This document shows, in pieces, positions 1,607 to 31,496 of a stretch of 64,000 nt of DNA (position 1 is the stretch's first letter; each line of letters opens with the position of its first letter). A program made the position numbers and the translations under genes. The notes beneath the pieces are model-generated. The model saw nothing but the letters and a program-made list of their open reading frames with translations. It made no database searches and was not told the DNA's origin. Source of the DNA: an uncultured Coxiellaceae bacterium. Lineage in GTDB: Bacteria; Pseudomonadota; Gammaproteobacteria; DSM-16500. Where the stretch lies: NCBI GenBank assembly GCA_964492045.1, contig CAZBHW010000012.1, positions 14,431-78,430 on the forward strand. Reading direction: 5' to 3'.

Positions 1607-1609
1607 TGA

Positions 1610-9098: not shown

Positions 9099-10295
9099 AT
9101 GAGCCAATCACGATCGTCATTCGCTGACTTTGCAGCGCAAAATAGTCCTTTTAGCCAGTTTGCAGTTGAAAATATTCTTAATGCCAATTCAAATAATGCA
9201 TATCATTCATTTTTATCCGCAAGTTCACAAGGCTTGCGTACCACAGCAACAACCACAGCCTACAGACAACCTTTTGCAGTGGCTAACGCGTTTCCATTGC
9301 AGTTACCCATTATTACTCCAAGCGCAGACGTCATATCATTCAAATTAAATCCGCCCGAACTAAGTTTACCGATATTTACTTCTGATCTACAGATAAATAA
9401 TAACTCATCGAATGCGTGTAACAACTTCATGGCAAAATCGCAAAACGAAAGCACGCTAAAGCAGCCGTCTTCTCTCTTGCAGGCAGCATCAAATACGGCT
9501 ATCAGGCAATTTGGATTACGAGCGCTTGATAGTGTCATCGAAGGTAGTCGAGGTTATCTCGGGACAAAAATTCGCTTAGCGGGTCTTGTAACCGATGTTT
9601 ATGATCGAACGCAGAGCGATGACTTATCAGATCTAGATCCAGCATCATTATTTGTAATCGCGTCATTAGCCGGCATCTCTAAATCAGTCACTGCAACGGT
9701 TGGTTACGGAACAGTTGTCACGGAAGGTGTTTTAATGGCTGGTGCCTCAGGCGGTGCAGGTCTAATACCGGCCACTATATTCGTCTCGGCAGCACTACCA
9801 GCGGTTGATACGCTAAGCAATATTGTGGGTGATTCAGTTGAATTAGCATGCTTGCAAATTGTTAAAATGTTGAAAAACTATGTTGATGCCACACATACAG
9901 TGCAGAGTCCTTCATCTATTCAGTCTTCAAATACAGAAGAACAAGAGAAACTATTCCGCATCACCTTAGACATCATCAAAAAATCCGATCCACGTGACCT
10001 ATCAGTTCGTGATTGCATAACGGTGACAAAGCGAGTAGAGGCCGTTAACTCTTTGAAAGCTACGGTTCAGAGTATGCAGCGCAATGGACTGAAAACAAGT
10101 GACGCAGAAGCTGGCGATCTTATGCACGAGATATCTGTCATTGAGAGCAAAATGAATAGTGTCGTACGTGAGTGCGTACTCAATCGCGACCACCGCAGTG
10201 GCGTTTCGAACAATCCATCAGCATTATTTTCGACAGCTAACACTCCACCAATGGCGGCAACAAATATCATCCCAAGTAACGTAATATTAAACTAA
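9099..10295 (+). CDS. hypothetical protein with a central Ala/Gly-rich hydrophobic hairpin; candidate secreted effector
   Basis: 398-aa ORF with no recognisable domain. It has a hydrophobic block FVIASLAGISKSV...LMAGASGGAGLIPATIFVSAALPAV and a polar Ser/Asn/Pro-rich C-terminus. Confidence 0.6.
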   Translation: MSQSRSSFADFAAQNSPFSQFAVENILNANSNNAYHSFLSASSQGLRTTATTTAYRQPFAVANAFPLQLPIITPSADVISFKLNPPELSLPIFTSDLQINNNSSNACNNFMAKSQNESTLKQPSSLLQAASNTAIRQFGLRALDSVIEGSRGYLGTKIRLAGLVTDVYDRTQSDDLSDLDPASLFVIASLAGISKSVTATVGYGTVVTEGVLMAGASGGAGLIPATIFVSAALPAVDTLSNIVGDSVELACLQIVKMLKNYVDATHTVQSPSSIQSSNTEEQEKLFRITLDIIKKSDPRDLSVRDCITVTKRVEAVNSLKATVQSMQRNGLKTSDAEAGDLMHEISVIESKMNSVVRECVLNRDHRSGVSNNPSALFSTANTPPMAATNIIPSNVILN

Positions 10296-10310: not shown

Positions 10311-12965
10311 ATGCAAAGACAAGGCTTACAAAGTCCAGAAGAAGTATTCGCTTCACTCCCAACCACCGATGAATTCATGGCGTTGCGTCGCGATCTTAAT
10401 CAACCAACATCAATGGAGAGTAGACAAGATGCTGCTAGAGCATTCGAGCAGAGAATATCCGCTGCGCAACGTTCGTTCCAGTTGATAGGTATGGTTTCCG
10501 CGAATAGTACCACTATGCAGCGTGTTTCTGAGTTGGGGTTGGCAGCCACGCAAATGTATGCTGGATATGCGGAATTAATGACGCTTAATGCTGGTGTCAC
10601 CACCGCCGCTACGTCAGCAGCTCCACTTGCTGCAGCAAGCCCGTTGGTTGCCTTAGGTCCTGCGGCTTCAATTGCGATGGCGGCAGTTGTGATCTTTAAT
10701 GCTTTTTCGAAGAAAAAGAAAAACGATCAGTTTGGTGAAGCTGTTATGCGAAATCTTAGGGTTATTTCAGAGCAAGTACATTCCCTGCATGTTGATATGC
10801 GTGAACAATTTCAGCAAAACGCGAGAAACCAACAAATCATTTATACGGCGATACTTGAAGGTTTTCAAACAATGACCCAGTTAATTGATGCTCAGCGTCA
10901 TGAGAATCATCAGCTACATATGGGCACGCAAGAGCTTCTTACTAGACTAGAAGCTAGTGTCAATCGAAACTTCACCGTGCTTGCTGAATCGCAACGAGAA
11001 ATTTCACTTCAAAAAATTCGTGAAACATTTACAAAAGTAGATGGTTGGGTTTCAGAAACGCTGACGCAAAATCCACGTGAAAACATCGAAAAACTAGCTG
11101 GAAAATTAACGGCTTTAACCGGTCTTAATGGGGTTTTAGCGTCAAACACTTATACGGGCGCTAGATGGGTTCCAGATCAGATGAACAACGTCGACGCTTA
11201 TCGCGTTGTGAATGAAGTGTTTAAAGAATTAAATTACGAAACAGCAATTGATTATACGGGATTTCTATCAGTATATGCCCGCAAGCATCTTGGCTTACAG
11301 TCTGAGCAGGTTGACTTGACGGCTGTCTTTAGTCCAACGCTGTGGAATGAAGCAGTTGAAAAATATATACAACTTCGTGCAACTTTCTCAAGATATATAT
11401 CGGACACTGACAGTATCAATATCAATAAAATCATTCGAGCTGGTAATAATCAATTAGCTTTCAAACAACTATTGCAAACTACTCCGGCACTCTATCAGAC
11501 TCTATTTGCTCAATATAGAGCGATACTCGGGGCTATTAAAGTAGCCACTGATGCTGCTCTCGATGAAAGAAGTGCAGTGATCAATCAACAAATAGCCGCA
11601 AGATTTCCCGTTGCTCAATATCCAGCGATGGAGCGGATTAATATCGATATCAAAGAGGCTGCTTGGAAAAATGTAGCTGCATTTGAAAATAAAAAGCCTT
11701 CAAAAATTGTAGCTAAAGGAAATATGATTTCATTTCCACCTATGACAGGTTTGTGGGTAAAAGCTTGGTCGTGTGATCATAATGCTGATGTTGTCGCTAA
11801 TTTTAGCGGGTATTCCATACCAGGTATTTTTGTATTACTTGATCGCCTGGGTAAAGAGATCAGTATGAACTATGACGTCAAAATCCTCGCATGGGGCGGC
11901 GATGTTGATGCTTTTGCCGAGATAAATACCAATATCTTCATCAAAGACAAGCAAAGACATCTTAAGAAGTTAGCGGATGTCAAGTATTCATTAAAGCCTA
12001 TCGAACAACAGCTTCGTCTCGGAGGACAATATGGTAGCCATGTATTAGTTGATGGTCCCTCAACCTGGAATTTATATCGACATATGGAATGGCATAATGA
12101 AAATGTTCAATTCAGCATTAACTGGAGTGGATCGTATACCGTAAACAATGTGGTGGTCTGCAATTCAGGTCTTCATACCACTAAACTAATGGAAAACTAT
12201 TGGTCTAGAGATAAAGTTTGTTCTGTCACCGAGGCCGGTGACATTACCGAACTTAAGGGCAATGCTTCTATTGAATTTTCAGAATGGCTATACGAGGAGA
12301 GAAAGAAATCTATCTCTAACGCGATTTCGGGTATACAGCTGAGTCATTTGAAAGAGCAGCTCAATTCCATCAAGAAATTAATTATTGCGATGGCTTTTGT
12401 TGCAGGTTATAGAAATGAAGAAATCCTGCTGTTGCAGAATTCACTCCATGACTCGAATAGTATCAATAAATTATATAACGACTATTTAAATGGGATTGTC
12501 AGTATTCATCATGATCACATGCCACACTTAGAGCTATGTTTGAATGCTGAGGAAATTGAAAGACGTATGATTGAGCGCCAGTCAACAAACGAATATTTTC
12601 AAGATCATCCAGTTGAGCGGGAGATCAGAGTGGCGCTACAACGATTGAACCTATTGAGATTAATGCCACTTTTGTCTGAACCTATCCCTAATCCTGCAGT
12701 AGACAATAACAATGTAATCGCGGCGCAACTTGGAACACTATCTCAGGAAGTGCAAGAGCTAAAACAACTTAATATGGCTTTAATTAATATGTTGATACAG
12801 CTGCACAATCCCCCACAGCATGGCCATGCAAGAGAGAACTCTTCATATGCTCAATTCATCAATTTGTTTGGCGTTAGAAGCAATCATAGTAATGTGAATA
12901 ATTCAGGAAATAGTCATGAGACTAGGCCGTCAGGAAGCAGTCAACCTAATTCAAATAATTTATGA
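10311..12965 (+). CDS. large hypothetical protein, N-proximal hydrophobic hairpin plus predicted helical/coiled regions; candidate secreted effector
   Basis: 884-aa ORF starting 15 bp after the previous gene. It has a hydrophobic block AAPLAAASPLVALGPAASIAMAAVVIFNAF followed by KKKKN, and a Ser/Asn-rich C-terminal tail. No family recognised. Confidence 0.65.
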   Translation: MQRQGLQSPEEVFASLPTTDEFMALRRDLNQPTSMESRQDAARAFEQRISAAQRSFQLIGMVSANSTTMQRVSELGLAATQMYAGYAELMTLNAGVTTAATSAAPLAAASPLVALGPAASIAMAAVVIFNAFSKKKKNDQFGEAVMRNLRVISEQVHSLHVDMREQFQQNARNQQIIYTAILEGFQTMTQLIDAQRHENHQLHMGTQELLTRLEASVNRNFTVLAESQREISLQKIRETFTKVDGWVSETLTQNPRENIEKLAGKLTALTGLNGVLASNTYTGARWVPDQMNNVDAYRVVNEVFKELNYETAIDYTGFLSVYARKHLGLQSEQVDLTAVFSPTLWNEAVEKYIQLRATFSRYISDTDSININKIIRAGNNQLAFKQLLQTTPALYQTLFAQYRAILGAIKVATDAALDERSAVINQQIAARFPVAQYPAMERINIDIKEAAWKNVAAFENKKPSKIVAKGNMISFPPMTGLWVKAWSCDHNADVVANFSGYSIPGIFVLLDRLGKEISMNYDVKILAWGGDVDAFAEINTNIFIKDKQRHLKKLADVKYSLKPIEQQLRLGGQYGSHVLVDGPSTWNLYRHMEWHNENVQFSINWSGSYTVNNVVVCNSGLHTTKLMENYWSRDKVCSVTEAGDITELKGNASIEFSEWLYEERKKSISNAISGIQLSHLKEQLNSIKKLIIAMAFVAGYRNEEILLLQNSLHDSNSINKLYNDYLNGIVSIHHDHMPHLELCLNAEEIERRMIERQSTNEYFQDHPVEREIRVALQRLNLLRLMPLLSEPIPNPAVDNNNVIAAQLGTLSQEVQELKQLNMALINMLIQLHNPPQHGHARENSSYAQFINLFGVRSNHSNVNNSGNSHETRPSGSSQPNSNNL

Positions 12966-18404: not shown

Positions 18405-21071
18405 TCAGCAAGAGTCTTTTATAAATACGCTATCCATATTAAACTGGCCTGAATTTTCCTGCCTTTTCATGTGGCGTGTTGTACTCGCTCTTTTATATCT
18501 GCACATGGGGCAGTTTCTGCCTTGTGTTCTGTGAAGAATCGAATCCCGCCACTCGTGCCCACAATTACCTTTCCACCAAACAACTCTACCAGAACCTGGT
18601 GTGAAGTGCTCAGGGAGTAATTGGTCATTTTTAGATGAATGCCATTCATTTGCTAAAACAGGAAATAAATAATTTAAGGATTTATTATAATCAACATGCT
18701 TTCGTTTTGAATAGTAATCATTGAAATGCGATGTCGCTATCCACTCATCTTTTGCCATGTACATGTTTATCTTTTCTAAAATTATCGGAGGGATACAATC
18801 ATTATTCTTTAAAATTATATTTAGTATTTGCTTGATTGTTGAGATATTCATCTCTCTTTTTTTAACAGAAATATCATTTGCACCTAAAATGGGAAGGCCT
18901 TCTTCTCTTATCCTTATCAGGAATATGCTTGCAGTCAGTGCTAAATACTTTTCTTGATCTTTTTCATGCTTGTCTTGGTGCCAATATACGCCGTCAAATT
19001 CAATACCGATATTAAATTCAGGGATGAAGATATCGACTTCGCGCTTATTGATAATAACCCTGTGTTCTACATTCTCGAATATTGCTTTCAATTCACAAAA
19101 TATTCTTAACTCTGGTATAGAGTATGCTGGATTGCATTTAGGGCATCCGGTGCCTTGCGTTCTGTGATTTATAGCCGCTAACCACTCATGATCATCACCT
19201 TTTGGGCATTTCCACCAAACTTTTTTGGCTGTACCAGGCATAACATCATATGCAGTAAGTGTTCCATTTTTCGCTGAGTGCCATTGTTCAGCGACCAGAG
19301 GATAACGTGTTGCTAGACAGTTAGATTTTGCAAGTTTTTGCCCTGCACAAATAGGGCAACCATTTCCACTTGCTCTATTGTTAAGTGTTGCTTTCCACTC
19401 ATGATCGTCGCCTTTGTGACATTTCCACCATATCATTTTATTTGCGCTAGGTAAGACATCAAATGGTGTAAGCTTTCCATTTTTAGTTGGATGCCATTCC
19501 TTAGCTAGTCTTGGATTAGCTGCTCCTAAGCAATTAGATATAGCCACTTTCTGATTGGAGCATATTGGACAGCCTATTCCTTTATTACGATTTGCAATAA
19601 CTGCATCCCATTCATGGTCATCGCCTTTTGGGCACTTCCACCAAACTTTTTTTCCCGAACTCGGTGTCACTGTGTAGGGAGTTAAAACGCCATTCTTCGT
19701 GGGATGCCATTCATTCGCGAGTTTTGGATTTAACGTCGCTAAACAATTCGAGTTAACCACTACTTGGCTTGCACATACTCCGCAGCCATGACCATTTGAT
19801 CTACTTACTACACTCGCTTGCCAAACATGATCATCCCCTTTTGGGCATACCCACCAAGCTTTTTTTAATGAACCAAGAGTAACTTTATTAGGTGTTAACA
19901 TCCTATTCTTTGTTGGGTGCCATTCACTAGCAAGTTTAGGATTTAGTGTCGCTAGGCAATTTGATTTGACGACTTTCTTATTTGAGCAGATTGGACAACC
20001 TGTCCCGTTGTTTCGATCTTCAACAGTGGCTTGCCAAACATGATCCTCACCTATTGAACATTTCCACCATACTTTTTTACATGATCCAGGAATTATTTCG
20101 AAGGGGGTTAATTCCCCATTTTTGGTAGGATGCCATTCACTGGCAAGGTTCGGATTTAATGTTGCTAAACAATTTGATTGAACGACAACTTTGTTACTGC
20201 AGACACCACAGCCATGACCCTTGCTTCTGGTTTTAACGGCTGCTTGCCATACATGATCAGTGCTTTTCGAGCATTGCCACCATGCAACTTTGTCGGAAAA
20301 GGGGGTTACATCATATGGTGTAAATGCCCCGTTTTTTGTGGGGTGCCACTCCTTTGCTAATTCAGGATGTAACGTTGCAAAACAATTAGACCAAACTGCT
20401 TTCAGGCCAGCGCAAATGGGACAGCCTGTTCCCTGGCTTCTATTTGAAACCATTGTTTGCCACTCGTGATCATCGCCATTTGGACATTTCCACCAAACTC
20501 TCTTGTGTGAGCCAGCTACAACATCTCGTGGGGTTAGCGTTCCATTTTTAGTAGGGTGCCATTCACTAGCTAATACCGGATTCGTAACAGAGAGACAATT
20601 TGAGTCTGAGACTCTCTTGCCTGAGCATATCGGGCAACCATTGCCTCCCGTTCTTTTAGAAATTACCGCGTCCCACTCATGATCATTATTTACCTGACAT
20701 CTCCACCAAGCTTTTCTATGTGACCCAGGTAGAACATCTTGCGGAGTTAGAGTTCCATTTTTAGTCGGGTGCCATTCATCAGCTAATTTAGGGTTAACGG
20801 TTGCCAAGCAGTTAGACATAACAATTTTTTTACCAGAACAGATAGGGCACCCTTTGCCTTGACTTCTGTTAGAAATCATGGCCTGCCATTCATGATCATC
20901 ACCCTTTGAGCACTTCCACCAGGCGATGTCTTTTGAGTATGCGGATACATGAAATGGGCTAAGCGCCCCATTTTTAGTTGGATGCCATTCTTTGACCAGT
21001 TGTGGGTTCTTTGGTACAAAATTAGATTTAATCATGCGCGTATGAATACCAAATGACGCAAAGTTCGGCAA
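18405..21071 (-). CDS. zinc-ribbon (DUF4379-like treble-clef) repeat protein with an embedded PD-(D/E)XK / Vsr-DUF559-like nuclease motif
   Basis: 888-aa ORF. Nine consecutive 71-aa repeats match EWHPTKNGxLTPxxVxxGSxKKVWWKCxKGDDHEWxAxVxxRxxGxGCPICSG. They are followed by REVDIFIPEFNIGIEFDGVYWH and a tenth zinc ribbon (EWHSSKN...CPMC). The track start is TTG at 21069-21071. The first in-frame ATG is at 21035. Confidence 0.8.
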   Translation of the reverse strand: MPNFASFGIHTRMIKSNFVPKNPQLVKEWHPTKNGALSPFHVSAYSKDIAWWKCSKGDDHEWQAMISNRSQGKGCPICSGKKIVMSNCLATVNPKLADEWHPTKNGTLTPQDVLPGSHRKAWWRCQVNNDHEWDAVISKRTGGNGCPICSGKRVSDSNCLSVTNPVLASEWHPTKNGTLTPRDVVAGSHKRVWWKCPNGDDHEWQTMVSNRSQGTGCPICAGLKAVWSNCFATLHPELAKEWHPTKNGAFTPYDVTPFSDKVAWWQCSKSTDHVWQAAVKTRSKGHGCGVCSNKVVVQSNCLATLNPNLASEWHPTKNGELTPFEIIPGSCKKVWWKCSIGEDHVWQATVEDRNNGTGCPICSNKKVVKSNCLATLNPKLASEWHPTKNRMLTPNKVTLGSLKKAWWVCPKGDDHVWQASVVSRSNGHGCGVCASQVVVNSNCLATLNPKLANEWHPTKNGVLTPYTVTPSSGKKVWWKCPKGDDHEWDAVIANRNKGIGCPICSNQKVAISNCLGAANPRLAKEWHPTKNGKLTPFDVLPSANKMIWWKCHKGDDHEWKATLNNRASGNGCPICAGQKLAKSNCLATRYPLVAEQWHSAKNGTLTAYDVMPGTAKKVWWKCPKGDDHEWLAAINHRTQGTGCPKCNPAYSIPELRIFCELKAIFENVEHRVIINKREVDIFIPEFNIGIEFDGVYWHQDKHEKDQEKYLALTASIFLIRIREEGLPILGANDISVKKREMNISTIKQILNIILKNNDCIPPIILEKINMYMAKDEWIATSHFNDYYSKRKHVDYNKSLNYLFPVLANEWHSSKNDQLLPEHFTPGSGRVVWWKGNCGHEWRDSILHRTQGRNCPMCRYKRASTTRHMKRQENSGQFNMDSVFIKDSC
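19107..20999 (-). repeat. coding tandem repeat, 9 units of 213 bp (71 aa), diverged
   Basis: The period was established by counting residues between successive EWHPTKNG motifs. The units are roughly half to two-thirds identical at the protein level by eye. Confidence 0.8.
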
Positions 21072-21112: not shown

Positions 21113-21117
21113 ATTTC
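21113..21117. repeat. left copy of the 5-bp target-site duplication ATTTC
   Basis: atttc immediately precedes the TGTCATTTG terminus. An identical pentamer lies at 30193-30197. Confidence 0.75.
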
Positions 21118-21246
21118 TGTCATTTGCCAAAGAGGAGTTCAGCAAAATTGTGTAATTATAGGGTATATTTTGTCAAAGACAAGTTCAGCATTGACAGAGA
21201 GGGGTTCCTTAACTAGCATTCCTGCCAAAGAAGAGTTCTGCAAATT
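21118..21246 (+). repeat. left transposon end: three spaced direct copies of an about 22-bp putative transposase-binding site
   Basis: The three copies are tgccaaagaggagttcagcaaa (21125-21146), tgtcaaagacaagttcagcatt (21171-21192) and tgccaaagaagagttctgcaaa (21223-21244). Confidence 0.7.
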
Positions 21247-21258
21247 CAGGGGCAACAA

Positions 21259-23103
21259 ATGGAGTTCGGGATACGGCAAGGTGATATCGTTATGTATGAC
21301 GATATGAAATACAGAATTAAATCCCCATTAAGCCTGGAACGAGTGCTGATGGAGTCAGTAGATACCGGAGAATCAAAATCAGCTAATTTATCAGATCTAC
21401 GTCCTGTTGCCATCGAAGAGCAACGGCCAAACAAAGTTTGTGTTGTATCCGTATCATCTGAAGCCTGGGCAGAGGCAAAAAAACGTGAAGAGGCTATCAA
21501 GGAATTTGTATCTTGTGTTTGTTCTAGGCTGGACGCTGAAAATATAGGTGAAAAGTTAGGTATTACTGGGCGTCAGGTTTACAAACTGATTCAGCGTTAT
21601 CAAAAATCTGGGTGCAAACTGAATGCACTACTACCTGTACAGCCTGATGGAGGAAGCGGTAAGAGCCGCATTAATAATGAAATAGAACAAATTATCCAGG
21701 CGACGATTGATGAGCTTTATCTTACAAGGCAAAAGTATAAAATTAGTATAGTTGTCGAAGAAATTTTACGGCGCTGTCATTATGCTAATTTACAACGCCC
21801 ATCCGAAAGAACCATTCGTAGAAGAATTAACAATATTGCAGCTAAACTAGTCGTTGCTAAGAGAGAAGGTGCTAAAATTGCAAGAAATAAATATTCACCA
21901 ATATTTGGAGAATTCCCAGAAGTAACCAGTCCCCTGAAAGTGGTTCAGATTGATCATACACCAGTTGATGTAATCATCGTTGATGAAATCCTCAGAAAAC
22001 CGATTGGTCGTCCTTATTTAACTATAGCTATCGATGTTTTCAGTCGCTGTATTACAGGATTTTGCTTGTCGCTGGAACCACCATCTGCTGTATCCGTAGG
22101 TCTTTGCCTGACTCACTCAGTCTTCGATAAAGATGCATGGCTTGCTGACAGAAATATTGTGGGTGCTTGGCCAATCTGGGGAAAACCAATGGTGATTTAT
22201 GTCGATAATGCGAAAGAGTTTCATAGTGAAGCATTGCAGAGAGGTTGTGATATTAATGGAATTCGTATTGAGTATCGACCATTAGCACAACCGCAGTATG
22301 GTGGTATTGTTGAGCGCGTTATTGGTACTATGATGCAATTAGTCCATCAATTGCCAGGTACCACTTTTTCCAATACAGCTGAACGTGGTGGTTATCAATC
22401 TGAAAAAAATGCAGCGCTAACATTAACAGAGTTAGAGCATTGGCTAACAATTGCAATTACAGAATATTATCATCAAAAAATTCATGGTGGTCTGTGTGCA
22501 CCACCAATTGCAATGTATACGGCGGGTATTTTAGGAGATGAGAATCGTATAGGTTGTGGTTATCCGCCACGTATTCATAACAAGCGTGGTTTTTTAATTG
22601 ATTTCTTACCCATTGAAAGACGTACGATTCAGCGGCATGGTTTTATGCTGGATCACATTTCATATTATAGCAACGCATTGTCACCGATGATTGCAAATCG
22701 TAAAAAGCATGAACAATATATTATTCGGCGTGATCCACGCAATATAAGTTGTATATATGTCCTTGACAAGCGAAGTAATGAATATCTGGAAATTCCATAC
22801 CGTACGCTATCAAGGCCTACCATTACATTATGGGAGCATCGTCAAGCATTAAAGTATTTACGTGAAAAGGGATTAAAGCAACAAGATGAAAACCTAATAT
22901 TTCAAGCTGTCGAAAAGTTACGAATGATTACTGATAGCGCTGTTGCTAATAGCAAGCAAGCGCGGCGTCAACATGAAAGAGCGAAAAATTTATCTTATGT
23001 GATAAAAAAAGAAGACTCAGTTGAGAAAGATAATGAGCCAATTGTTTCCGAAGCTGACAATTACAAGTCGGCTAAAAGATTTGAGGATATTGAAATATGG
23101 TAG
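21259..23103 (+). CDS. tniA: TniA/TnsB-type DDE (Mu-like, rve) transposase
   Basis: 614 aa with a DDE context: VVQIDHTPVDV, VIYVDNAKEFHS, GGIVERVIGT. It starts 13 bp after the last end repeat. Confidence 0.85.
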   Translation: MEFGIRQGDIVMYDDMKYRIKSPLSLERVLMESVDTGESKSANLSDLRPVAIEEQRPNKVCVVSVSSEAWAEAKKREEAIKEFVSCVCSRLDAENIGEKLGITGRQVYKLIQRYQKSGCKLNALLPVQPDGGSGKSRINNEIEQIIQATIDELYLTRQKYKISIVVEEILRRCHYANLQRPSERTIRRRINNIAAKLVVAKREGAKIARNKYSPIFGEFPEVTSPLKVVQIDHTPVDVIIVDEILRKPIGRPYLTIAIDVFSRCITGFCLSLEPPSAVSVGLCLTHSVFDKDAWLADRNIVGAWPIWGKPMVIYVDNAKEFHSEALQRGCDINGIRIEYRPLAQPQYGGIVERVIGTMMQLVHQLPGTTFSNTAERGGYQSEKNAALTLTELEHWLTIAITEYYHQKIHGGLCAPPIAMYTAGILGDENRIGCGYPPRIHNKRGFLIDFLPIERRTIQRHGFMLDHISYYSNALSPMIANRKKHEQYIIRRDPRNISCIYVLDKRSNEYLEIPYRTLSRPTITLWEHRQALKYLREKGLKQQDENLIFQAVEKLRMITDSAVANSKQARRQHERAKNLSYVIKKEDSVEKDNEPIVSEADNYKSAKRFEDIEIW

Positions 23104-24041
23104 AGGAAAGTCCTGATCATCTCATACCTGAGATTAGAAATTTATTGAAACTGAGTCAGCCTGAACGAATTGAGTATATTCAGAGAGACAATTGGATTGG
23201 ATACACTAGGGCAATTGAAGCATCACTTAAACTCCACGAGTTATATTCTTACCCGCAGCGACAGCGCATGCCAAATATTTTAATCATTGGGCCAACTAAT
23301 AATGGAAAAACAATGATTATCGAAAAATTCTGCCGAGTTCATAAACCGATCGTTAAAAGACAACACATCGAAGTTGATATATATGATTTAGGCGAGCAAA
23401 ACTTGCTTGAAGAAATGCCAGTGGTATCAGTACAAATGCCACCATCACCTGATACGAGACGTTTTTATTTGGCGATACTTGAAAAATTTAAAATGCAGAA
23501 TGTATATATTCGTTATCACACTGGCCCGCTAGAAATCACAATTATTTCTCTATTTAAAAAATTTAAAGTAAAAATGTTATTGATTGATGAAATTCACAAT
23601 ATTCTCGCTGGCCGAAATGATAAACAACGCGAGTTTCTAAATGTATTGCGATTTCTTGGGAATGAATTAAAAATTCCACTAGTGTGTGTTGGCACTAAAG
23701 ATGCGTACTTGGCAATTCGTAGTGATCCGCAATTAGAAAATAGATTTGAACCTTTCCCATTGCCATTATGGAAAGCTGGTCGTGAATACGATTCTTTATT
23801 ATCTAGTATAGTAGCAGTTTTGCCGCTAAAGAAACCTTCTAAATTAAATATGCCATCTATCTCAGAAAATATTTTGGCAAAGAGCGAAGGCATTCTTGGG
23901 GAAATGTTCACTTTACTTCGTCGTGCAGCTATTAGTGCTATTCGTACTGGAAAGGAAGAAATAGATGAGATGGCTTTAAGGTTAGCTGATTATTATTCCC
24001 CATCAGAACGAAGACAGCTATTTGAGCGAAATATTGCCTAA
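23097..24041 (+). CDS. tniB: TniB/TnsC-type AAA+ ATPase transposition protein
   Basis: 314 aa with Walker A GPTNNGKT and Walker B LLIDEIHNIL. It overlaps tniA by 7 nt. Confidence 0.85.
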   Translation: MVEESPDHLIPEIRNLLKLSQPERIEYIQRDNWIGYTRAIEASLKLHELYSYPQRQRMPNILIIGPTNNGKTMIIEKFCRVHKPIVKRQHIEVDIYDLGEQNLLEEMPVVSVQMPPSPDTRRFYLAILEKFKMQNVYIRYHTGPLEITIISLFKKFKVKMLLIDEIHNILAGRNDKQREFLNVLRFLGNELKIPLVCVGTKDAYLAIRSDPQLENRFEPFPLPLWKAGREYDSLLSSIVAVLPLKKPSKLNMPSISENILAKSEGILGEMFTLLRRAAISAIRTGKEEIDEMALRLADYYSPSERRQLFERNIA

Positions 24042-24248
24042 GTGATTTCTTACTATATTTAGCAACATGAGTTATTCGATAAGTTAAAACAACTGCATGA
24101 CTTCTCACTCTTATTGTGAGTATCACAAAGGATATTGTCTCATTATTATGCTGAGTTAAATTTATTGAATATTGTATATGGTGCTTAAAATACAGGCTGT
24201 TCTATTACACGAATTTACTAGCTGAGCATAATATTAATATCAGTATAA

Positions 24249-24482
24249 TTTCTTTTATGCGGATCTCCGCATAACCGAAAGGGCTGGCTTTTTGCTGACA
24301 ACATTGCTGGCGCTGAAGTTGCTGCGACCTTATTTAGCTTACTTGAGACATTCAAATACCATGACATTGAGCCTTATGATTGGCCTCGGTATGCGTTACA
24401 GCAAATGCCGCTGCGCCAGTCCGACGATAAAATCGAAGCTCTGTTGCTATTCAATAACGATCGCGCGTTGATCGCTAGATGA
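24249..24482 (+). pseudogene. IS66-family transposase C-terminal remnant
   Basis: My translation reads ...HNRKGWLFADNIAGAEVAATLFSLLETFKYHDIEPYDWPRYALQQMPLRQSDDKIEALLLFNN...*, which matches the conserved IS66 Tnp tail (KNWLF...YSLIET.K.NG.EPY.YL..VL..LP). No N-terminal portion or start codon is present. Confidence 0.7.
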
Positions 24483-24629
24483 GCTAGTGACGGGTAGTTG
24501 ATTTAGCGGATACATTGCAAGCATTAAATTGGTCATGCCCAAACTGATTCGCAGCTGATTTTTTACTTGACCTGAATAAAGTATTCGCATGACAATGCGA
24601 GCTTAAATAATTCATTGGAGACGATCTCT

Positions 24630-25037
24630 ATGTCCATTAAAAAAACACTATTCATGATCACCGCGACCATACTTGCCGCCATCCCATTTCAAGCGCAAGC
24701 CGGTGATTTAATCGCCAATAACCGCACAAATTATGATTCCACCCTGATCACAAATGGTGCAGTTTGCTCCACCATTTTGGGTGAAATCGGCATTGCACGC
24801 GCACACACCGAAGGCAATGTTATCCCGGATCGCAAAGTCAGATTAGCTTGCGGCGCGCACAAACGTGATTGTGTTGCTGCCGTTAAAATGACAGCAAATT
24901 GCTCCGGCAGAACAATTGCAACAGTAGTATTCGATGTTGACGCTGGCATTATCAGCGTCACACCAGAAGCAGGTGAAACTCAGTTCAAAATTACCGGCAG
25001 TGGCTTTACATCAACAGTTGAACAGTTAACCAAGTAA
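24630..25037 (+). CDS. small secreted protein (signal peptide, 4 Cys), unknown function
   Basis: The ATG at 24630 has a GGAG RBS. The signal peptide is MSIKKTLFMITATILAAIPFQAQA. A strong hairpin follows the gene. Confidence 0.65.
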   Translation: MSIKKTLFMITATILAAIPFQAQAGDLIANNRTNYDSTLITNGAVCSTILGEIGIARAHTEGNVIPDRKVRLACGAHKRDCVAAVKMTANCSGRTIATVVFDVDAGIISVTPEAGETQFKITGSGFTSTVEQLTK

Positions 25038-25048
25038 TCATCAAACTA

Positions 25049-25078
25049 TTTACCCTGCGCAATCTTGCGCAGGGTAAA
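25049..25078 (+). terminator. strong hairpin (about 13-bp stem) downstream of the secreted-protein gene
   Basis: tttaccctgcgcaa tc ttgcgcagggtaaa forms the stem. There is no clear U-tract, so the terminator function is tentative. Confidence 0.45.
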
Positions 25079-25237
25079 TCCATCCTCTAAATATTATCTT
25101 ATTATTAATTTTTATCTTCATTATTCTTTTGCCTGCAATATTTATTGCTAATTCCACTATAGGGCCCACTGTGAAGCTACGTCCTATAGAAACTAATTCA
25201 CAAATTTCAGAAATTAAAAAATGACACGGAGTATAGC

Positions 25238-25658
25238 ATGAAGCTTAAAAGTCTAGCGTTGCTGGGTGCAATGTCATTCAGCATTATTCCACTTGCAGCA
25301 TTTGCTGATCTCACCCTCACAAACAATAGCAACTCACCAGCAACAGCATCAGTAACTGGCAGTCCGTGTTCCAGTGCCGCAGGAAACATGGGAGTTCTAT
25401 AAGCCGCATGCCGGGAAAGTTGTTGTGAAAGATTGGATCTAGAACATGTATTGCAAGAACGGTTGCACTGGTCATGTTTACATGAGCAGAAACTGCAGCG
25501 GCAAGAGTATCGCAGAAGTGAGAGCAAGTACCAAAGAAGGCGTCACTGATGTTCAGGTTGCTGACGGTTCAGCTGATGGATACAAAATTGTTGGCCACGG
25601 TCAGAATGTTTCGATCGAAGGTGGTCCAAGCAGAAAATGGTATAAATTACTTTTCTAA
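25238..25658 (+). pseudogene. disrupted paralog of the 24630-25037 secreted protein
   Basis: The N-terminal piece MKLKSLALLGAMSFSIIPLAAFADLTLTNNSNSPATASVTGSPCSSAAGNMGVL ends at a stop at about 25400. The C-terminal piece (25446-25658) continues in another frame with CKNGCTGHVYMSRNCSGKSIAEV, paralleling CGAHKRDCVAAVKMTANCSGRTIATV. At least one frameshift plus an in-frame TAG lie between the pieces. Confidence 0.6.
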
Positions 25659-25708
25659 GATACTATCGAACAACATCATTCCCGCTAACGCGGGAATGAT
25701 GATTCAAG

Positions 25709-27019
25709 CTAAGCGAGATTCCACACCAACTGCGCGGCAAGAACATCGGCACTGCCATTCACACTACCATTTGTTGCAACAATTTCATCACCTGTTACCT
25801 GCGCTGGTGGTATGACGTGTGCTTTATTGATAAAGATATGCGTCCATCCCAAATCAAATCCGATGGTGGGTGTTGATTGAAAATGCCCACCAACTGCAAA
25901 AGCATAATGATCATTATCCGGCATTTTCACATTGCGATAAGTATTGCTCACCGGTGTTTGATCGTAACCAATACCGCCACGCAAGGTAATTTTATCAGTA
26001 ACAAAATAATCACCGCCCACAGAAACACTAAATGTATTATGAAAATGCTGGGGGATTGTTACCACAATACTTGTGCTCGGATCTGCAAATTCCAGACCCG
26101 CAACATTTTGCAAAATAAGATTTCGTATCGTATTCCATTGCGTGAAAATCACGCTGCCCATCACGGCAACCTGAGGATTTAATTTATGATATCCACTAAG
26201 CGCGGTATACGGCGGTAAAGTGATATTAAGCTTGGCTCTGCTGGATTTAATTGGTCCGTAATCACCTGCTAATGGGCCGCTAAACGCACTATCCCCGATA
26301 AGATGGTGGACCGCCTGAGAATGATAGCTTAAGCCAAAGCGTGAGTTTTCATTGATGTCATACATAATACCTGCATGCATGCCATAACCAGTATCATTAG
26401 CTGTGTTAATACCATCGCTATCCAGCTCTTTGTCGCCAAGTGTTGCCACCTGATCAAACTCGCCTTTCATCACCTGAATATCCGGGCCAATACCAAAGGC
26501 AAGCTTCTCACCAAGCTTAACAGATAATACAGGGCTGATATCGATGACTTGTACTGAAGTCTCAGTGGATGCATAGCGTAAAATGGTTGATGTTCCATAA
26601 CTCGTTTTCTGGCCAAATGGAACGGTGACACTAAAACCGAAAGCGACGACATCACTCAATGGTGCAACATAATGCAACGCTGGTATCAAACCATAACCGC
26701 CGCCTTGTGCCGTAACCGGCTGAGGAGCGCCAACCAGAATTGTATTCATGCCAACCGTGCCTGTGTATTTGAAACTTGTGAATACATTATCTGCAGCTAT
26801 AACTAGTTGTTGATCTTTGAATCGATTTAGGCCTGCTGGATTGTAAAACGCGGTACTGGCGTCGTATGCAGCTGCTGCATAGCCAGCGTGAAAATTAGCG
26901 ACATTGTTTGCATCTTGTTCCCATAATTGGAAAGCTGATGCCATGGCATGAGATGAAAATACTAACAAGCCCGAAACAGTTAGCGCAGCGGCCAATTTGC
27001 TAAGTTTAAAACAGCCCAT
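25709..27019 (-). CDS. FadL/TodX (OMPP1) family outer-membrane hydrophobic-compound transporter
   Basis: 436 aa with a signal peptide ending SSHAMASA and the N-terminal FQLWEQDANNVANFHAGYAA typical of FadL. It has a beta-barrel-like alternating pattern and an aromatic-rich C-terminus. Confidence 0.75.
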   Translation of the reverse strand: MGCFKLSKLAAALTVSGLLVFSSHAMASAFQLWEQDANNVANFHAGYAAAAYDASTAFYNPAGLNRFKDQQLVIAADNVFTSFKYTGTVGMNTILVGAPQPVTAQGGGYGLIPALHYVAPLSDVVAFGFSVTVPFGQKTSYGTSTILRYASTETSVQVIDISPVLSVKLGEKLAFGIGPDIQVMKGEFDQVATLGDKELDSDGINTANDTGYGMHAGIMYDINENSRFGLSYHSQAVHHLIGDSAFSGPLAGDYGPIKSSRAKLNITLPPYTALSGYHKLNPQVAVMGSVIFTQWNTIRNLILQNVAGLEFADPSTSIVVTIPQHFHNTFSVSVGGDYFVTDKITLRGGIGYDQTPVSNTYRNVKMPDNDHYAFAVGGHFQSTPTIGFDLGWTHIFINKAHVIPPAQVTGDEIVATNGSVNGSADVLAAQLVWNLA

Positions 27020-27127
27020 TGTTACCTCCTGACATGGAATATCCCGCCTTGGCGAGCTTGAAATAAATGGCTATAAGGATACCTTATCTGCACACCAAAA
27101 CAACTAATTCACCACACAGGAAATAAA

Positions 27128-27358
27128 ATGGCCGTGACACCGTCTAATATGCTGCCTTTGGGCACAAAATCACCTGATTTTTGTTTATTAGATACGCGAA
27201 CTGGCAAAGAATTATTACTTGATGAATTAAAATCTGAAAGCGCAACTGTGATTATGTTTATTTGTAATCACTGCCCGTATGTCATGCACATACAGAATAA
27301 GCCGGCAGAAGCTGTGCGGGAATATCAGAAAAAAATATCAGCGAACATGCTGATATAA
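27128..27358 (+). pseudogene. truncated thioredoxin-fold (redoxin/AhpC-TSA-like) gene
   Basis: The 76-aa ORF carries the CxxC motif (FICNHCPYV) but ends about 25 aa after it. Proteins of this fold are normally at least twice as long. Confidence 0.5.
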
Positions 27359-27448
27359 ATAGATCACATTGCCAGTGAATTACTTCATGCGGGTCAAGAA
27401 ATATTTAGCTGCATATAGGCGTTGGAATTACGAGCTGGATGCTTGGTA

Positions 27449-28942
27449 TCAATGCCCCATCTCCAGTCCCGCAAGTTTCGCCGGTTTCGGCGCAAATAAC
27501 ACGACAGTCGCAGCACAAACAAGCACGAGAGAAGCGACAACAAACAGCTGGTTTGTTGCCAGCATTACACTTTGGGTATCCACCATTTGATTCAGCGTAA
27601 TGACCGGTATTTCTGAGCTGGGATGCATCATTGAAACTAGTTCATTGCGGTTAATCGCAGCATGATCACTCCAGGCAGAAGTAACAATCGATGCAGCAAA
27701 TGCGCCGGATAATGTGCGCAAAAAATTCATGAGACCAGCAGCGGATGCAATCTCATTCGGCTCTACAGCAGAAAGCGCCAACGCACTAAGCGGAATAAAA
27801 AAGAATGGCATACCAATGCCTTGAAATAATAGCGGCACGGCAACTTGTGCGAATGTCATATCAATACTGCCAAAGGAACGGACGAAGGTCATGCATCCCA
27901 TCCACATGACTCCGCAAAACACCAGTTTGCGCGGGTCCACCTTCGAAGCAAGTTTGGCGGCAATCGGCGCGACAAGAACGGCAAACATGCCGTGAGCTGC
28001 CATCGCCATTCCTGATGTAGTGGCGGTGTAACCCATATTGGTTTGCAGCCAAAGAGGTGTCAGGACAATCGAGCTAAAAAACGCGCCGAAGGTGAGACTG
28101 GTAGCCATCACACTTATACTGAAACTGCGATGCCGGAAAATATATAAATCTACAATCGGATTTTTTTCAGTTAATTCCCAAATCAGAAATGCTGCGAAAC
28201 CTATGATAGCAGTGATGGCCAGAATAATAATTTCAGGTGATGAAAACCAATCAAGTTTTTGTCCTTCATCCAGCATCAATTGCAAGGAACCAACAGACAC
28301 GATTAACAGTACTAACCCTACGACATCAATTTTTGATTTAACTGTCGCTGTTTCAAAGGGCTTCAGCAGCGTCCAGATCATGTAACAACACACGACGGCG
28401 AGCGGTACATTAATGAGAAAGATCCATGACCAGCCCCAGTTATCACAAATATAACCGCCGATAATGGGGCCAAGAATAGGTGCGATCAGCGTCGTCATAC
28501 TCCAGATCGCCATCGCTGCCATGCGTTTTTCTTTGGGGAAAGTTGACATTAAAATGGTTTGTGAAAGCGGCATCAGCGGGCCGCCGGCAAGACCCTGCAA
28601 TATGCGGCCGACGACCAGCATACCAAGTGAATTTGCGAATCCGCAAATCGCTGAACAGAGGCCGAAAAATAACAAACCAGCAGCAAATACTTTTACGGTA
28701 CCAAAACGGTTGGCAAGCCAGCCGGTTAGCGGCACGCTGATCGCCTCGGCAACGGCATATGAAGTGATGACGTAAGTGCCTTCGTTGCTTGATATCGCCA
28801 ACCCGCCCGCAATATGCGGCACAGAAACATTGGCTATCGTCATATCCAGCACCACAATAAAATTTGAAGCGGCGAGCATCACGGCAGCAATAATCAGACC
28901 GCTGCCTGCTAATTGTGGTTTGGTATGCATCTCGTGATTCAT
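27449..28942 (-). CDS. emrB: DHA2 (EmrB/QacA) family MFS multidrug efflux transporter
   Basis: 497 aa with about 14 hydrophobic segments and an N-terminal ANVSVPHIAGGL motif region typical of EmrB. It abuts emrA (1-nt overlap). Confidence 0.85.
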   Translation of the reverse strand: MNHEMHTKPQLAGSGLIIAAVMLAASNFIVVLDMTIANVSVPHIAGGLAISSNEGTYVITSYAVAEAISVPLTGWLANRFGTVKVFAAGLLFFGLCSAICGFANSLGMLVVGRILQGLAGGPLMPLSQTILMSTFPKEKRMAAMAIWSMTTLIAPILGPIIGGYICDNWGWSWIFLINVPLAVVCCYMIWTLLKPFETATVKSKIDVVGLVLLIVSVGSLQLMLDEGQKLDWFSSPEIIILAITAIIGFAAFLIWELTEKNPIVDLYIFRHRSFSISVMATSLTFGAFFSSIVLTPLWLQTNMGYTATTSGMAMAAHGMFAVLVAPIAAKLASKVDPRKLVFCGVMWMGCMTFVRSFGSIDMTFAQVAVPLLFQGIGMPFFFIPLSALALSAVEPNEIASAAGLMNFLRTLSGAFAASIVTSAWSDHAAINRNELVSMMHPSSEIPVITLNQMVDTQSVMLATNQLFVVASLVLVCAATVVLFAPKPAKLAGLEMGH

Positions 28943-29868
28943 TATGCTTTGCTACCAATATTGATATCAACATGCATGGATAAGCCAACGCGCAGTGGAT
29001 ATTGGGCAAGACTGTCTTTGTCGATTGCAATGCGTATGGGTAAACGCTGCACGACCTTAATCCAGTTGCCCGTTGCATTCTGTGCCGGAATAATCGCAAA
29101 TGAAGATCCCGTGCCGCCTGAAACACCAACAACCTTGCCGCGATAAGTGACGTCTGAACCGTAAATATCTGCGCGCAGCTCAACTGGCTGTCCAGGTTTC
29201 ACTTTTACTAACTGCACTTCCTTGAAGTTGGCAGTCACATAGACTTCTGAAACAGGCACAATCGAAAGTAAATAAGTACCGGAGGATACACGCTGACCAA
29301 GCTGCACTTCGCGCTTGGCGATCACGCCGTCAATTGGTGCACGCAGCACCGTTCGCTTCACTTCAAGCCGTGCTGCTTCGAGACCGGCCTTGGCGAGATC
29401 AGCATTGGCCTTGGCAACCTTGAATGTGTTTTCAGAATTATCAAGCTCTTCTTTTGAGACAAAACCTGAAGTCACCAATTTGTTACGGCGGTTTAAATTC
29501 GCTTGCGCACGCCCAAGCTCTGCGTCTGCACGCGCAGCATTTGCATCCGCCTGTTCCAGCGCAATTTTGGCATCCGAATCATCAAGAATGACGAGAATAT
29601 CACCAGCTTTTACATTCTGTGTATCTGTCACCAAAACAGATTTAACTGTACCTGCAGAACTCGAAGAAACCTGCGCAATATCCGCCGCTACATAGGCATT
29701 ATCAGTGGTGACATGCTTGGATCCTATCAGCAGCCAGTAACTGCCGCAAACGAGCACCCCTGCGACAACCACCACTGCCAGCCTGATGAGCCAGCGCTTG
29801 CGTGTCTGCATTGCGCTATTATTCGCCGAAATGAGTGGCGTGATATTTTCTTCTTGTGCTGACTGCAT
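28942..29868 (-). CDS. emrA: HlyD/EmrA-family periplasmic adaptor
   Basis: 308 aa with a single N-terminal TM, TTDNAYVAADIAQVSSSSAGTV and a coiled-coil middle region. Confidence 0.8.
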   Translation of the reverse strand: MQSAQEENITPLISANNSAMQTRKRWLIRLAVVVVAGVLVCGSYWLLIGSKHVTTDNAYVAADIAQVSSSSAGTVKSVLVTDTQNVKAGDILVILDDSDAKIALEQADANAARADAELGRAQANLNRRNKLVTSGFVSKEELDNSENTFKVAKANADLAKAGLEAARLEVKRTVLRAPIDGVIAKREVQLGQRVSSGTYLLSIVPVSEVYVTANFKEVQLVKVKPGQPVELRADIYGSDVTYRGKVVGVSGGTGSSFAIIPAQNATGNWIKVVQRLPIRIAIDKDSLAQYPLRVGLSMHVDINIGSKA

Positions 29869-30027
29869 GGTATATGCCGAACCCAGTTATAATTATTCGG
29901 ACAAATATACCCCAACTTATACCCAATTTCATTTAAATCATGCCATTCCTGACGGCTTGCTCAGCGTAACTATTCAGTGACCCTAATCCTTTAAGCCAAA
30001 ATATCAATGACATAGCTCAAAAAACTG

Positions 30028-30056
30028 GCGTGAAACTAAAATGCCCTGTGAGACTG
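30028..30056. terminator. hairpin with flanking A/T runs just inside the right transposon end (possible bidirectional terminator)
   Basis: aaaatgccc tgtgagact gggcatttttt. Confidence 0.35.
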
Positions 30057-30143
30057 GGCATTTTTTATCTTTTTGCTCTAGCTCGCATCCGTTCGTGCGT
30101 GAGTAGATGGGCAAAAGGTTACGGTGGAGAAATAAATCCTCTC

Positions 30144-30192
30144 GTTGCTGAACTACTCTTTGTCATGCTGAACTCCTCTTCGACAAATGACA
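30144..30192 (-). repeat. right transposon end: two contiguous inverted copies of the end repeat
   Basis: The two copies are gttgctgaactactctttgtca (30144-30165) and tgctgaactcctcttcgacaaatgaca (30166-30192). They are reverse complements of the left-end sites. Confidence 0.75.
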
Positions 30193-30197
30193 ATTTC
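30193..30197. repeat. right copy of the 5-bp target-site duplication ATTTC
   Basis: atttc immediately follows ...CAAATGACA. Confidence 0.75.
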
Positions 30198-30440: not shown

Positions 30441-31496
30441 ATGCAACGGCTCGGTATTGATTATACGCTGGTCGCTGACGCGGCTGAAAAACTGACTGCA
30501 CAAGGCGAAGTCCCAACGATTGATCGCATACGAGTCTTCCTGGGCGGCACCGGTAGCAACACCACCATTTCAAAATATTTACATCTTTGGCGCCATAATA
30601 CGGGGCAGAGTCATAAATCAGAGCCCGCAAATTCCATCAATACGTCTGATCCAGTGCAGCAGGTGGTGACACGCGTCTGGCAACAACTCCGTGAAGAAAC
30701 AGATGCGGAAATTGAAGCCATCAAAACCAGCACGCAAACACTCATCACGGAATCTGAAGAAAAAGCGGCGCACATGACACAAGAGTATGAAAGGGTAGCC
30801 GCATTGTGTAATGGGTATCAGGAACAACTGCGGTTATCAGAAGCGAAATCTGCCGTGCAGCAATTCGATATAAACCAGCTGCAGCGAGAGCAGGCAATAC
30901 TTGAAGAACGGAACAAAGGTCTCGCGCAGCGTTACGCTGATTTGGAATTAACCATGGCCAAACAGCAAGCGGATCTCACGCAAGCCCATCACAATGAAAT
31001 GAATTTGCTGATTGAAAAATCAAATGCACAAATAGCCGCTCTCGAAAAATTAATCGCTCAACAAAAAAGTCATGCAGAAGATGAGCGTGTTAAACACATG
31101 CAAGAAACGGATCATCTCAAAACCAATCAGCAAAAAATAAAAAAAGATTACGAACTTTTACAGGCAGTATCTGCATCTAAAGATATAGAATTGATGGAAC
31201 TAAAAACCCAGCTAATCGCTCTCAAAAAAGAGAACGAGATGCTTTCTACGCAGGTTCAATCCCAAGAAAAATATTGGGGACTATTTGAGAAAAACAGCCA
31301 AGTCACCAATAATATATGGTCTGAATTAAAGGACATTCCCAAATTTGATTTTAACTTACCTTATATCAGTTTAATAAGTGATATACAGAGTAGTATGAAT
31401 CTTTCCATGGAAAGTCTAGGCAAGGTAACGCAGGATGCAAAACAAACCATAGAATTATTCAAGAATATCAGCATCATTGATATGAAGCATGAATAG
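30441..31496 (+). CDS. KfrA-like DNA-binding protein (KfrA_N domain plus long coiled coil)
   Basis: The N-terminus GIDYTLVADAAEKLTAQGEVPTIDRIRVFLGGTGSNTTISKYLHLWR matches the KfrA N-terminal pattern. The rest is rich in Q/E/K/L heptad-like sequence. Confidence 0.7.
   Translation: MQRLGIDYTLVADAAEKLTAQGEVPTIDRIRVFLGGTGSNTTISKYLHLWRHNTGQSHKSEPANSINTSDPVQQVVTRVWQQLREETDAEIEAIKTSTQTLITESEEKAAHMTQEYERVAALCNGYQEQLRLSEAKSAVQQFDINQLQREQAILEERNKGLAQRYADLELTMAKQQADLTQAHHNEMNLLIEKSNAQIAALEKLIAQQKSHAEDERVKHMQETDHLKTNQQKIKKDYELLQAVSASKDIELMELKTQLIALKKENEMLSTQVQSQEKYWGLFEKNSQVTNNIWSELKDIPKFDFNLPYISLISDIQSSMNLSMESLGKVTQDAKQTIELFKNISIIDMKHE

Follow-up and report, generated by a model that had tools for sequence, protein, structure and literature searches.

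An uncultured Coxiellaceae bacterium (Pseudomonadota; Gammaproteobacteria) carries a gene whose predicted product joins a long array of zinc fingers to a nuclease. We examined this gene, here called the finger gene, within a stretch of 64,000 nucleotides (nt) of contig CAZBHW010000012.1 (assembly GCA_964492045.1, forward-strand positions 14,431 to 78,430), which we refer to as the window and in which the finger gene occupies positions 18405-21071 of the minus strand. The reading that we favour, at a probability of roughly 0.55, is that the gene encodes a stand-alone, metal-dependent, site-specific DNA endonuclease, the most likely role of which is that of a free-standing, homing-type selfish endonuclease residing on integrative elements. 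This reading draws on the conservation of the finger array, on the assignment of the nuclease by profile and predicted fold, and on the distribution of the relatives.

Architecture of the finger gene

Starting from the N-terminus, the protein consists of nine fingers, a nuclease core of about 90 amino acids (aa), a helical linker and a tenth finger. Its parts, with window coordinates, are the following.

18405-21071, minus strand: whole open reading frame (ORF), 888 aa from a TTG start, from the ORF listing
20376-21014, minus strand: DUF4379 fingers 1-3, aa 20-232, from unit-by-unit identity matrices
19098-20375, minus strand: DUF4379 fingers 4-9, aa 233-658, from the exact 71-aa period
18852-19115, minus strand: Vsr-like, EDxHD-type nuclease core, aa 653-740, from a domain hidden Markov model (HMM), profile comparison and Foldseek
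18672-18851, minus strand: helical linker, aa 741-800, three helices, predicted local distance difference test score (pLDDT) >85 in the model of aa 588-888
18474-18671, minus strand: tenth DUF4379 finger, aa 801-866, a short-form variant with C-x-H spacing
18408-18473, minus strand: C-terminal tail, aa 867-888, predicted disordered, pLDDT <65 over the last ~20 residues

Two homologs were used for comparison: P0012, a 77%-identical ortholog (locus L001) against which all ratios of nonsynonymous to synonymous substitution (dN/dS, omega) were calculated, and P0038, a Legionella pneumophila homolog of the 6+1 form (six fingers, nuclease, one finger). Translation probably begins at the ATG of codon 13 (window 21035), because in N-terminal comparisons the residues MIKSNF at this codon are kept in P0012 and the codon lines up with the start of P0038; the protein is therefore probably 876 rather than 888 aa long. 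Omega for the whole protein is 0.11 at dS~1.3, and the protein is under purifying selection over its entire length. The net charge is +31 and the pI 9.1, every unit contributing +1 to +6, so that the array is basic throughout.

The DUF4379 finger array

The Pfam family PF14311 (DUF4379, a probable treble clef zinc finger; gathering score 24.5 bits) matches the protein ten times, with 670.8 bits and E=4.9e-207. The lead-in motif starts at aa 28, 99, 170, 241, 312, 383, 454, 525 and 596, so that its nine copies are spaced by exactly 71 aa, and a tenth copy stands at aa 809. Across units 1-9 the putative zinc-ligand columns C35, H41, C56 and C59 are invariant, as are W10, H11, N15, W32, W33, W43 and R50; the C-H-C-C set presumably binds zinc in what is probably a treble clef. 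In unit 10 the first cysteine is shifted (WWKGNCGHEW...NCPMC). A preliminary description of this DNA, made from its letters and ORFs, had already reported an 888-aa ORF with nine 71-aa units, each bearing a complete C-H-C-C set, and a tenth unit, and had named PF14311 as the family to search; the results above agree with it on each of these points.

The array is ancient, since its units are, on average, only 61% identical in nt and 43% at third codon positions (56% in aa) and stand in positional orthology to those of other proteins. The same evidence leads us to reject a recent slippage expansion, which the preliminary description had also discounted from the divergence of the units. Each finger of the window protein is closest to the P0012 finger at the same position (identities of 0.69-0.94 on the diagonal of the matrix vs about 0.5-0.65 off it), and fingers 4-9 are one-to-one orthologous, by identity matrices, to fingers 1-6 of the ~650-aa 6+1 Legionella relatives. 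Fingers 1-3 occur in the window protein and P0012 and are absent from these 6+1 relatives; the colinear blastn match with loci L002, L007 and L009 starts only at about window position 20383. Finger 10 is 66-77% identical to the last finger of four compared orthologs and only ~25% to fingers 1-9, with an omega of 0.03. Judged by these comparisons, the array is an ordered set of distinct modules kept position by position between orthologs, and its length differs among close relatives by whole N-terminal units.

The residues that distinguish one unit from another concentrate at columns 46-49, 51 and 54, which form the end of a strand and a short helix ahead of the CxxC knuckle, as well as in the loop at columns 24-28 and at columns 62-63. 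In line with the preliminary description, which had seen conserved ligands and spacing and varying surface positions, ligands and scaffold are kept while a defined set of positions varies. A wider set of 551 canonical fingers, taken from 131 proteins, has its greatest variability at these columns too, with polar or basic residues predominating there. Their signatures are too diverse (493 distinct among the 551 fingers) for a small recognition alphabet of the TALE kind, which is rejected; the preliminary description had likened the logic of the array to that of C2H2 or TALE arrays. Omega at the unit-specific columns is 0.23 vs 0.09 elsewhere; positive selection at these positions is therefore not seen, and purifying selection acts everywhere, being merely relaxed where the units vary.

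An AlphaFold model of fingers 4-7 (aa 233-516) reached a mean pLDDT of 94.6 and a predicted template modelling (pTM) score of 0.72, and the five models differed by no more than about one pLDDT point. This agreement and the high scores suggest that the packing between units is defined, rather than that of beads on a string. Foldseek matched the model to the DUF4379 proteins mt-SAF33, mS66 and 6yxx_E2; the matches to mt-SAF33 (7pua_Fd, 6sga_Fd, 9hny_Fd) have a probability of 1.00 and a target TM of 0.62-0.69 with both models, the second being that of aa 588-888 described below.

The nuclease module

Finger 9 joins the nuclease directly, with no linker (GCPKCNPAYSIPEL). Where the preliminary description had seen a segment of ~150 aa with a Vsr/DUF559-type motif, we find a nuclease core of ~90 aa (aa 653-740) followed by ~60 aa of helical linker; the nuclease type itself is upheld by profile and fold, though not by the Pfam models PF04480 and PF03852, neither of which matches the window protein (whole protein at E<=1 for PF03852; nuclease segment at E<=10). 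The key residues of the core are E654, D680, E691, D693, H698, D705, K708, R720 and R722, with the VDIFIPEFNIGIEFDGVYWH motif spanning aa 679-698, and the match to the nuclease domain HMM extends over aa 653-789.

Direct searches with the segment gave sub-threshold matches to PvuRts1I_N (E=0.006) and to PF18741 (REase_MTES_1575; E=0.03, 14.7 bits vs a 38.2-bit cut-off), and an NCBIfam scan of the protein returned nothing relevant. As phmmer found no match for the segment in the Protein Data Bank (PDB), a profile was needed. The relatives retrieved with the segment have precomputed annotations as PF04480 or PF18741, and 10 of the 12 that were aligned match both families at E<=1e-5; the link to DUF559/MTES_1575 appears to hold at the superfamily level.

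Two profiles of relatives, A1 (about 1.5 fingers plus the nuclease) and A2, match PDB 3r3p, the catalytic domain of I-Bth0305I, at E=3.9e-4 and E=2.5e-3, respectively. In A2, D680 and H698 align with D196A and H213A, the positions mutated to alanine in the 3r3p construct (residue roles and construct: PMC3239194), and D693, D705 and K708 align with N208, D222 and K225. The equivalence of E654 and E170 comes from the family alignment only, the PDB alignment beginning after E654. The window protein thus has the full EDxHD-type set (E654, D680, D693, H698, D705), and the catalytic residues on which the earlier proposal of a nuclease hinged are present on alignment. D680, E691, D693, H698, D705 and K708 are 93-99% conserved in 254 homologs, and omega for the nuclease is 0.054.

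The AlphaFold model of aa 588-888, comprising finger 9, nuclease, linker and finger 10, has a mean pLDDT of 89.7 and a pTM of 0.79. A Foldseek search of the PDB with this model returned mt-SAF33 for the finger (TM 0.62-0.65) and, for the nuclease, 3r3p_B (probability 0.97, TM 0.70), the DUF559-like NGO0050 (3hrl, 0.84) and Vsr (1cw0, 0.60). The linker between nuclease and finger 10 is conserved in the subfamily aligned in A2. Profile and fold evidence together lead us to assign the nuclease to the Vsr-like branch of the restriction-endonuclease-like fold.

Relatives and their distribution

A search with the full protein returned at least ~8,000 clusters at E<1e-20, with lengths reaching ~1,400 aa among the 120 matches listed; annotations such as 'zinc-ribbon domain-containing protein' and 'very-short-patch-repair endonuclease' are found among the relatives. 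The preliminary description had known of no characterised function for the architecture; these numbers show that it is not unusual, and PMC12350094 already proposes such an architecture. An exhaustive search with A1 yielded 23,460 representative clusters with E<=1e-3, 4,992 of them with E<=1e-30, counts that include finger-only proteins because this profile covers about 1.5 fingers. By a separate domain HMM, the nuclease module is present in 254 of 279 retrieved proteins and missing from 25. The finger count in these 279 has a median of 8 and a maximum of 16, and fingers on both sides of the nuclease are common.

A one-genome-per-species scan found at least 567 relatives, in Legionellales, Berkiella, Chlamydiae, Prochlorococcus, SAR116, Planctomycetes, Omnitrophota, Bacteroidales, many gut Clostridia and one Methanomethylophilaceae archaeon; the typical gene in the 80 loci kept has 6-7 fingers. 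Relatives are also present in 36 plasmid records and, with both fingers and nuclease, in 173 phage records. Viral predicted structures gave 98 matches at E<=1e-3, including strong ones in Marseille-, Klosneu- and Pithoviruses, and the names among the 50 viral matches listed include homing endonuclease, VSR endonuclease and restriction endonuclease. In keeping with the preliminary description, the homologs are patchily distributed accessory genes of islands, plasmids, phages and giant viruses and not housekeeping genes.

Bacteria associated with amoebae (Legionella, Berkiella, Parachlamydia, Simkaniaceae, Paracaedimonas, Rickettsiales) and giant viruses that infect amoebae contribute many of the relatives. 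This is a hint that genes are exchanged within amoebae, but the family is common in gut Clostridia and marine picoplankton as well. The amoeba-linked relatives had raised the idea of a Dot/Icm effector, which was dropped as a misfit with the wider spread (gut Clostridia, Prochlorococcus).

Genomic context

Three neighbouring features define the surroundings of the finger gene, and the integrase and transposon that had earlier been placed beside it are indeed there.

21118-30192, plus strand: TniA/TniB transposon, 9,075 bp, with TniA and TniB identified by Pfam, outside the finger gene
30441-31496, plus strand: KfrA_N gene, by Pfam, context
31489-32694, plus strand: tyrosine integrase, by Pfam, context

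The transposon is bounded by 27-nt terminal inverted repeats, TGTCATTTGCCAAAGAGGAGTTCAGCA, at 21118-21144 and 30166-30192 (93% complementary), and by a perfect 5-bp target duplication, ATTTC, at 21113-21117 and 30193-30197. The finger gene lies outside these boundaries, and we therefore reject it as transposon cargo. The perfect duplication and near-perfect repeats point to a recent insertion. No ORF of tniQ or tniR size follows tniB, and 24041-24615 has stops in all three forward frames; the cargo comprises an NttC-like protein, FadL, a major facilitator superfamily transporter and HlyD. The distance from the transposon end to the ORF, which lies downstream of it, is 47 bp, and that to the likely ATG is 83 bp. 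Ahead of the finger gene, promoter-like consensus matches occur only at 21147-21182 (minus strand), within the left end of the transposon and reading outward. Expression of the gene may now depend on the transposon end.

Without the transposon, the finger gene appears as the divergent neighbour of the KfrA_N gene and the tyrosine integrase. P0012 likewise adjoins KfrA and an integrase, in an island (L001) that also holds type I restriction-modification genes, an AAA_13 ATPase and ParA. DNA homology between the window and L001 is restricted to the ORF (77%) and the integrase (64.6% nt). About 900 bp downstream of the intact integrase, a stretch of ~230 bp at 33616-33847 matches the 3' end of the L001 integrase gene with 68.7% identity; it may be an integrase remnant or an old attachment-site duplication. 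The 6+1 version of L. pneumophila is located in a different, P4-like island with integrase, AlpA and primase, where it adjoins Fic.

Taken over 80 loci, 149 flanking ORFs fall into 146 different Pfam families, none of which occurs in more than four ORFs, and no conserved operon partner was found among them; they are a mixture of housekeeping, transposase and scattered defence-type genes, the last including DarG, AbiEi, PycC-like, mad2/3 and PDC candidates. Methyltransferase families account for at most 2 of the 149 and none recurs, and no methyltransferase is present among the scanned neighbours in the window (serine hydrolases, a LuxR regulator, the transposon, KfrA and the integrase). A PADLOC-DB 2.0 scan of the protein matched 0 families at E<=1. 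Rfam detected no intron or other family in the 64-kb window and the gene is free-standing, which leads us to reject an intron-encoded endonuclease; no tRNA or tRNA attachment site was found in the window. Exact-sequence look-ups of the protein and of the neighbouring hydrolase found no other copy of the locus and no empty site on record.

Functional inferences

In the mechanism that we envisage, the nine N-terminal fingers would pack into a continuous basic scaffold reading a long asymmetric DNA site through those variable polar residues that lie on the strand and on the short helix ahead of the CxxC knuckle. By way of the three-helix linker finger 10 would fold back, and the active site would be clamped between it and finger 9, which is fused directly to the nuclease; the cut would then fall beside the recognised site. 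A site this long would make a methyltransferase or immunity gene unnecessary. Such an endonuclease would persist and spread on integrative elements, and its carrier may gain an advantage against competing DNA. We favour a homing-type role because the only relatives with measured activity are homing endonucleases, and because the family is abundant in phages and giant viruses, has no partner gene and has conserved rather than diversifying fingers.

Several points weigh against this view. We know of no biochemically characterised member with DUF4379 fingers, so that DNA binding by the fingers is an inference, and the only solved DUF4379 structures are those of kinetoplastid mitoribosomes, where mt-SAF33 is among the factors on an immature rRNA region. 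The window protein itself falls below the Pfam thresholds of every nuclease family, and the Foldseek match to 3r3p has an E-value of only 0.06. The clamp geometry and the continuity of the array are deduced solely from pTM and pLDDT. Homing is not demonstrated, since the exact-sequence look-ups found no empty-site allele, target site or presence/absence polymorphism. Finally, the defence-type islands around close relatives are just as compatible with a defence role.

It is a tentative, rather unlikely extension of the favoured reading that the DUF4379 units form a natural modular reader, each contacting a fixed number of base pairs through columns 44-54. Were this true, the 6+1 and 9+1 forms found in nature would bind nested sites that differ in length, and the family would amount to a natural zinc-finger nuclease whose recognition code could be learned and which could serve as a new scaffold for the programmable targeting of DNA.

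The strongest competitor, which we hold to be possible but clearly less probable than a homing-type endonuclease, is a single-gene defence nuclease on islands that cuts invading phage or plasmid DNA and might recognise foreign or modified DNA in the manner of a type IV restriction enzyme. The preliminary description had entertained a role in defence or against mobile elements, and the restriction-modification genes, AAA_13 ATPase and integrase beside P0012, the Fic-adjoining P4-like island of L. pneumophila and the scattered defence-type neighbours at other loci all suit it, as do the weak similarity to the PvuRts1I nuclease domain and the annotation of giant-virus homologs as restriction endonucleases. 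Specific support failed to emerge, however: no PADLOC model matches, and no conserved partner exists among the 149 neighbouring ORFs, many of which are housekeeping genes. Moreover, the family abounds in phages and giant viruses themselves, and fingers that are kept by position, with an omega of 0.23 at the unit-specific columns, bear no sign of arms-race diversification.

An RNA-directed function seems improbable: the fingers would attach to structured RNA in the manner of the kinetoplastid mitoribosomal DUF4379 proteins, and RNA processing would fall to the Vsr-like domain, as has been proposed for eukaryotic Vsr-like RAP/FASTK proteins. Such a function would accommodate the fact that all solved structures with a DUF4379 finger are mitoribosomal proteins or assembly factors, with mt-SAF33 among those bound at the immature h22/h23 region of 9S rRNA, and also the Vsr-like FASTKD4, which regulates a mitochondrial mRNA according to the title of PMC11879112. 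Yet DNA is what I-Bth0305I and Hef, the nearest relatives whose activity has been measured, cut, DNA enzymes are the best structural and profile matches of the nuclease, and the gene is accessory and tied to mobile elements instead of being a conserved part of RNA metabolism. Least probable of all is a domesticated or decaying remnant, either a DNA-binding protein with an inactive nuclease, for which the 25 relatives lacking the module could be cited, or a gene silenced by the nearby transposon end, which may have displaced the native promoter and contains all promoter-like matches ahead of the gene. Against it stand an undamaged ORF that retains every catalytic residue and a nuclease omega of 0.054 relative to an ortholog at dS~1.3, and any silencing would, given the recent insertion, be too young to define the function.

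The homing-type endonuclease reading concerns a large family (4,992 representative clusters at E<1e-30) that extends across bacteria, an archaeon, phages, plasmids and giant viruses. The window gene is a clean, intact long-array example that can be compared with a 77% ortholog and natural 6+1 variants, which makes testable whether the fingers bind DNA, how site length relates to finger number, and whether the role is homing or defence.

Other features of the window

Left of the finger gene, in a variable region, lie genes for an 884-aa protein (10311-12965, plus strand) and a 398-aa protein (9099-10295, plus strand), neither with a Pfam match at E<=1e-3. At 175-3029 (minus strand) a back-to-back row of six ORFs (141-175 aa each), in which the stop of one overlaps or abuts the start of the next, includes two weakly paralogous pairs (28-30% identity); by eye, they look like GNAT-type acetyltransferases. 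A bufferin-like cluster for a ribosomally synthesized and post-translationally modified peptide (RiPP) occupies 34088-36121 (minus strand), near the copper-resistance genes for a P-type ATPase (37985-40258) and a multicopper oxidase-CopB fusion (40670-43468).

35858-36121, minus strand: RiPP precursor, 87 aa, Cys-rich, with a signal peptide
34870-35700, minus strand: MbnB/TglH/ChrH-family enzyme
34088-34873, minus strand: DUF2063 protein

Comparison with known systems

A characterised protein close to the window nuclease is the EDxHD homing endonuclease I-Bth0305I (PDB 3R3P; PMC3239194), which has in common with the window protein a Vsr-like catalytic fold and N-terminal DNA-binding modules. 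The five signature positions correspond (E654, D680, D693, H698 and D705 to E170, D196, N208, H213 and D222), the middle residue being D in the window protein and N in I-Bth0305I. The DNA-binding modules differ, however: I-Bth0305I has two NUMOD/helix-turn-helix-like motifs where the window protein has DUF4379 zinc fingers, and has no module after the nuclease, whereas the window protein has finger 10. In addition, I-Bth0305I is encoded in a group I intron of phage recA, and the window gene is free-standing in a bacterial island.

By description, the same domain order is found in homing endonucleases encoded in group II introns of phages, in which an EDxHD/Vsr-like domain comes after three to five CapR/DUF4379/DUF723-like domains; PMC12350094 proposes them as a large unrecognised EDxHD outgroup with thousands of UniProt hits. 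In these, zinc modules of ~60 aa precede a Vsr-like nuclease of ~100 aa; unlike the window protein, they are intron-encoded, have fewer modules and have none after the nuclease.

The Hef-like homing endonucleases annotated in phages, including Staphylococcus jumbo phages, are encoded by free-standing genes that lie between conserved phage genes. PMC2988022 describes phage U5 Hef as cutting nrdB, and homing was, as cited there, shown for U5 Hef only. The 'homing endonuclease' gp123 of Campylobacter phage CP30A (L006, 2167-3933) combines about six tandem C..GH..CP.C modules with the same nuclease; hhalign gives 97.5% probability and E=6.5e-12 over the last finger core, the junction and the catalytic core, and a CP.CNP..S..E junction between finger and nuclease is common to both proteins. 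Its fingers are units of ~50 aa that Pfam does not call DUF4379, compared with 71 aa in the window protein, and its C-terminal region of ~170 aa past the nuclease has a weak Mom-family match (E=0.0024).

The Vsr enzyme itself is a nickase specific for mismatches; it consists of a single domain and has a zinc site of its own as well as intercalating tryptophans. The E. coli enzyme (PDB 1VSR, 1CW0) shares its fold and the positions of the catalytic Asp and His with the window nuclease; the Vsr family PF03852 has no match in the window protein, and there is no dcm-type methyltransferase among the annotated neighbours. DUF559 and REase_MTES_1575 (e.g. NGO0050, PDB 3HRL) match the nuclease segments of relatives, whereas the window protein stays below threshold; to our knowledge, these families are themselves uncharacterised.

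Lausannevirus and Insectomime virus encode a 'putative restriction endonuclease' with four DUF4379 domains (PMC5513546). Like the window protein, these giant-virus proteins combine several DUF4379 fingers with a restriction-endonuclease-like domain, their function being known by annotation only. Engineered zinc-finger nucleases and TALENs, too, couple tandem DNA-reading modules to a nuclease, but offer an analogy only: the window modules are 71-aa treble clefs, not C2H2 fingers or TALE repeats, and the nuclease is not FokI. The window protein is thus a long-array bacterial member of a recognised architecture, rather than a new kind of system, and its value is that of a well-documented entry point into a known family.

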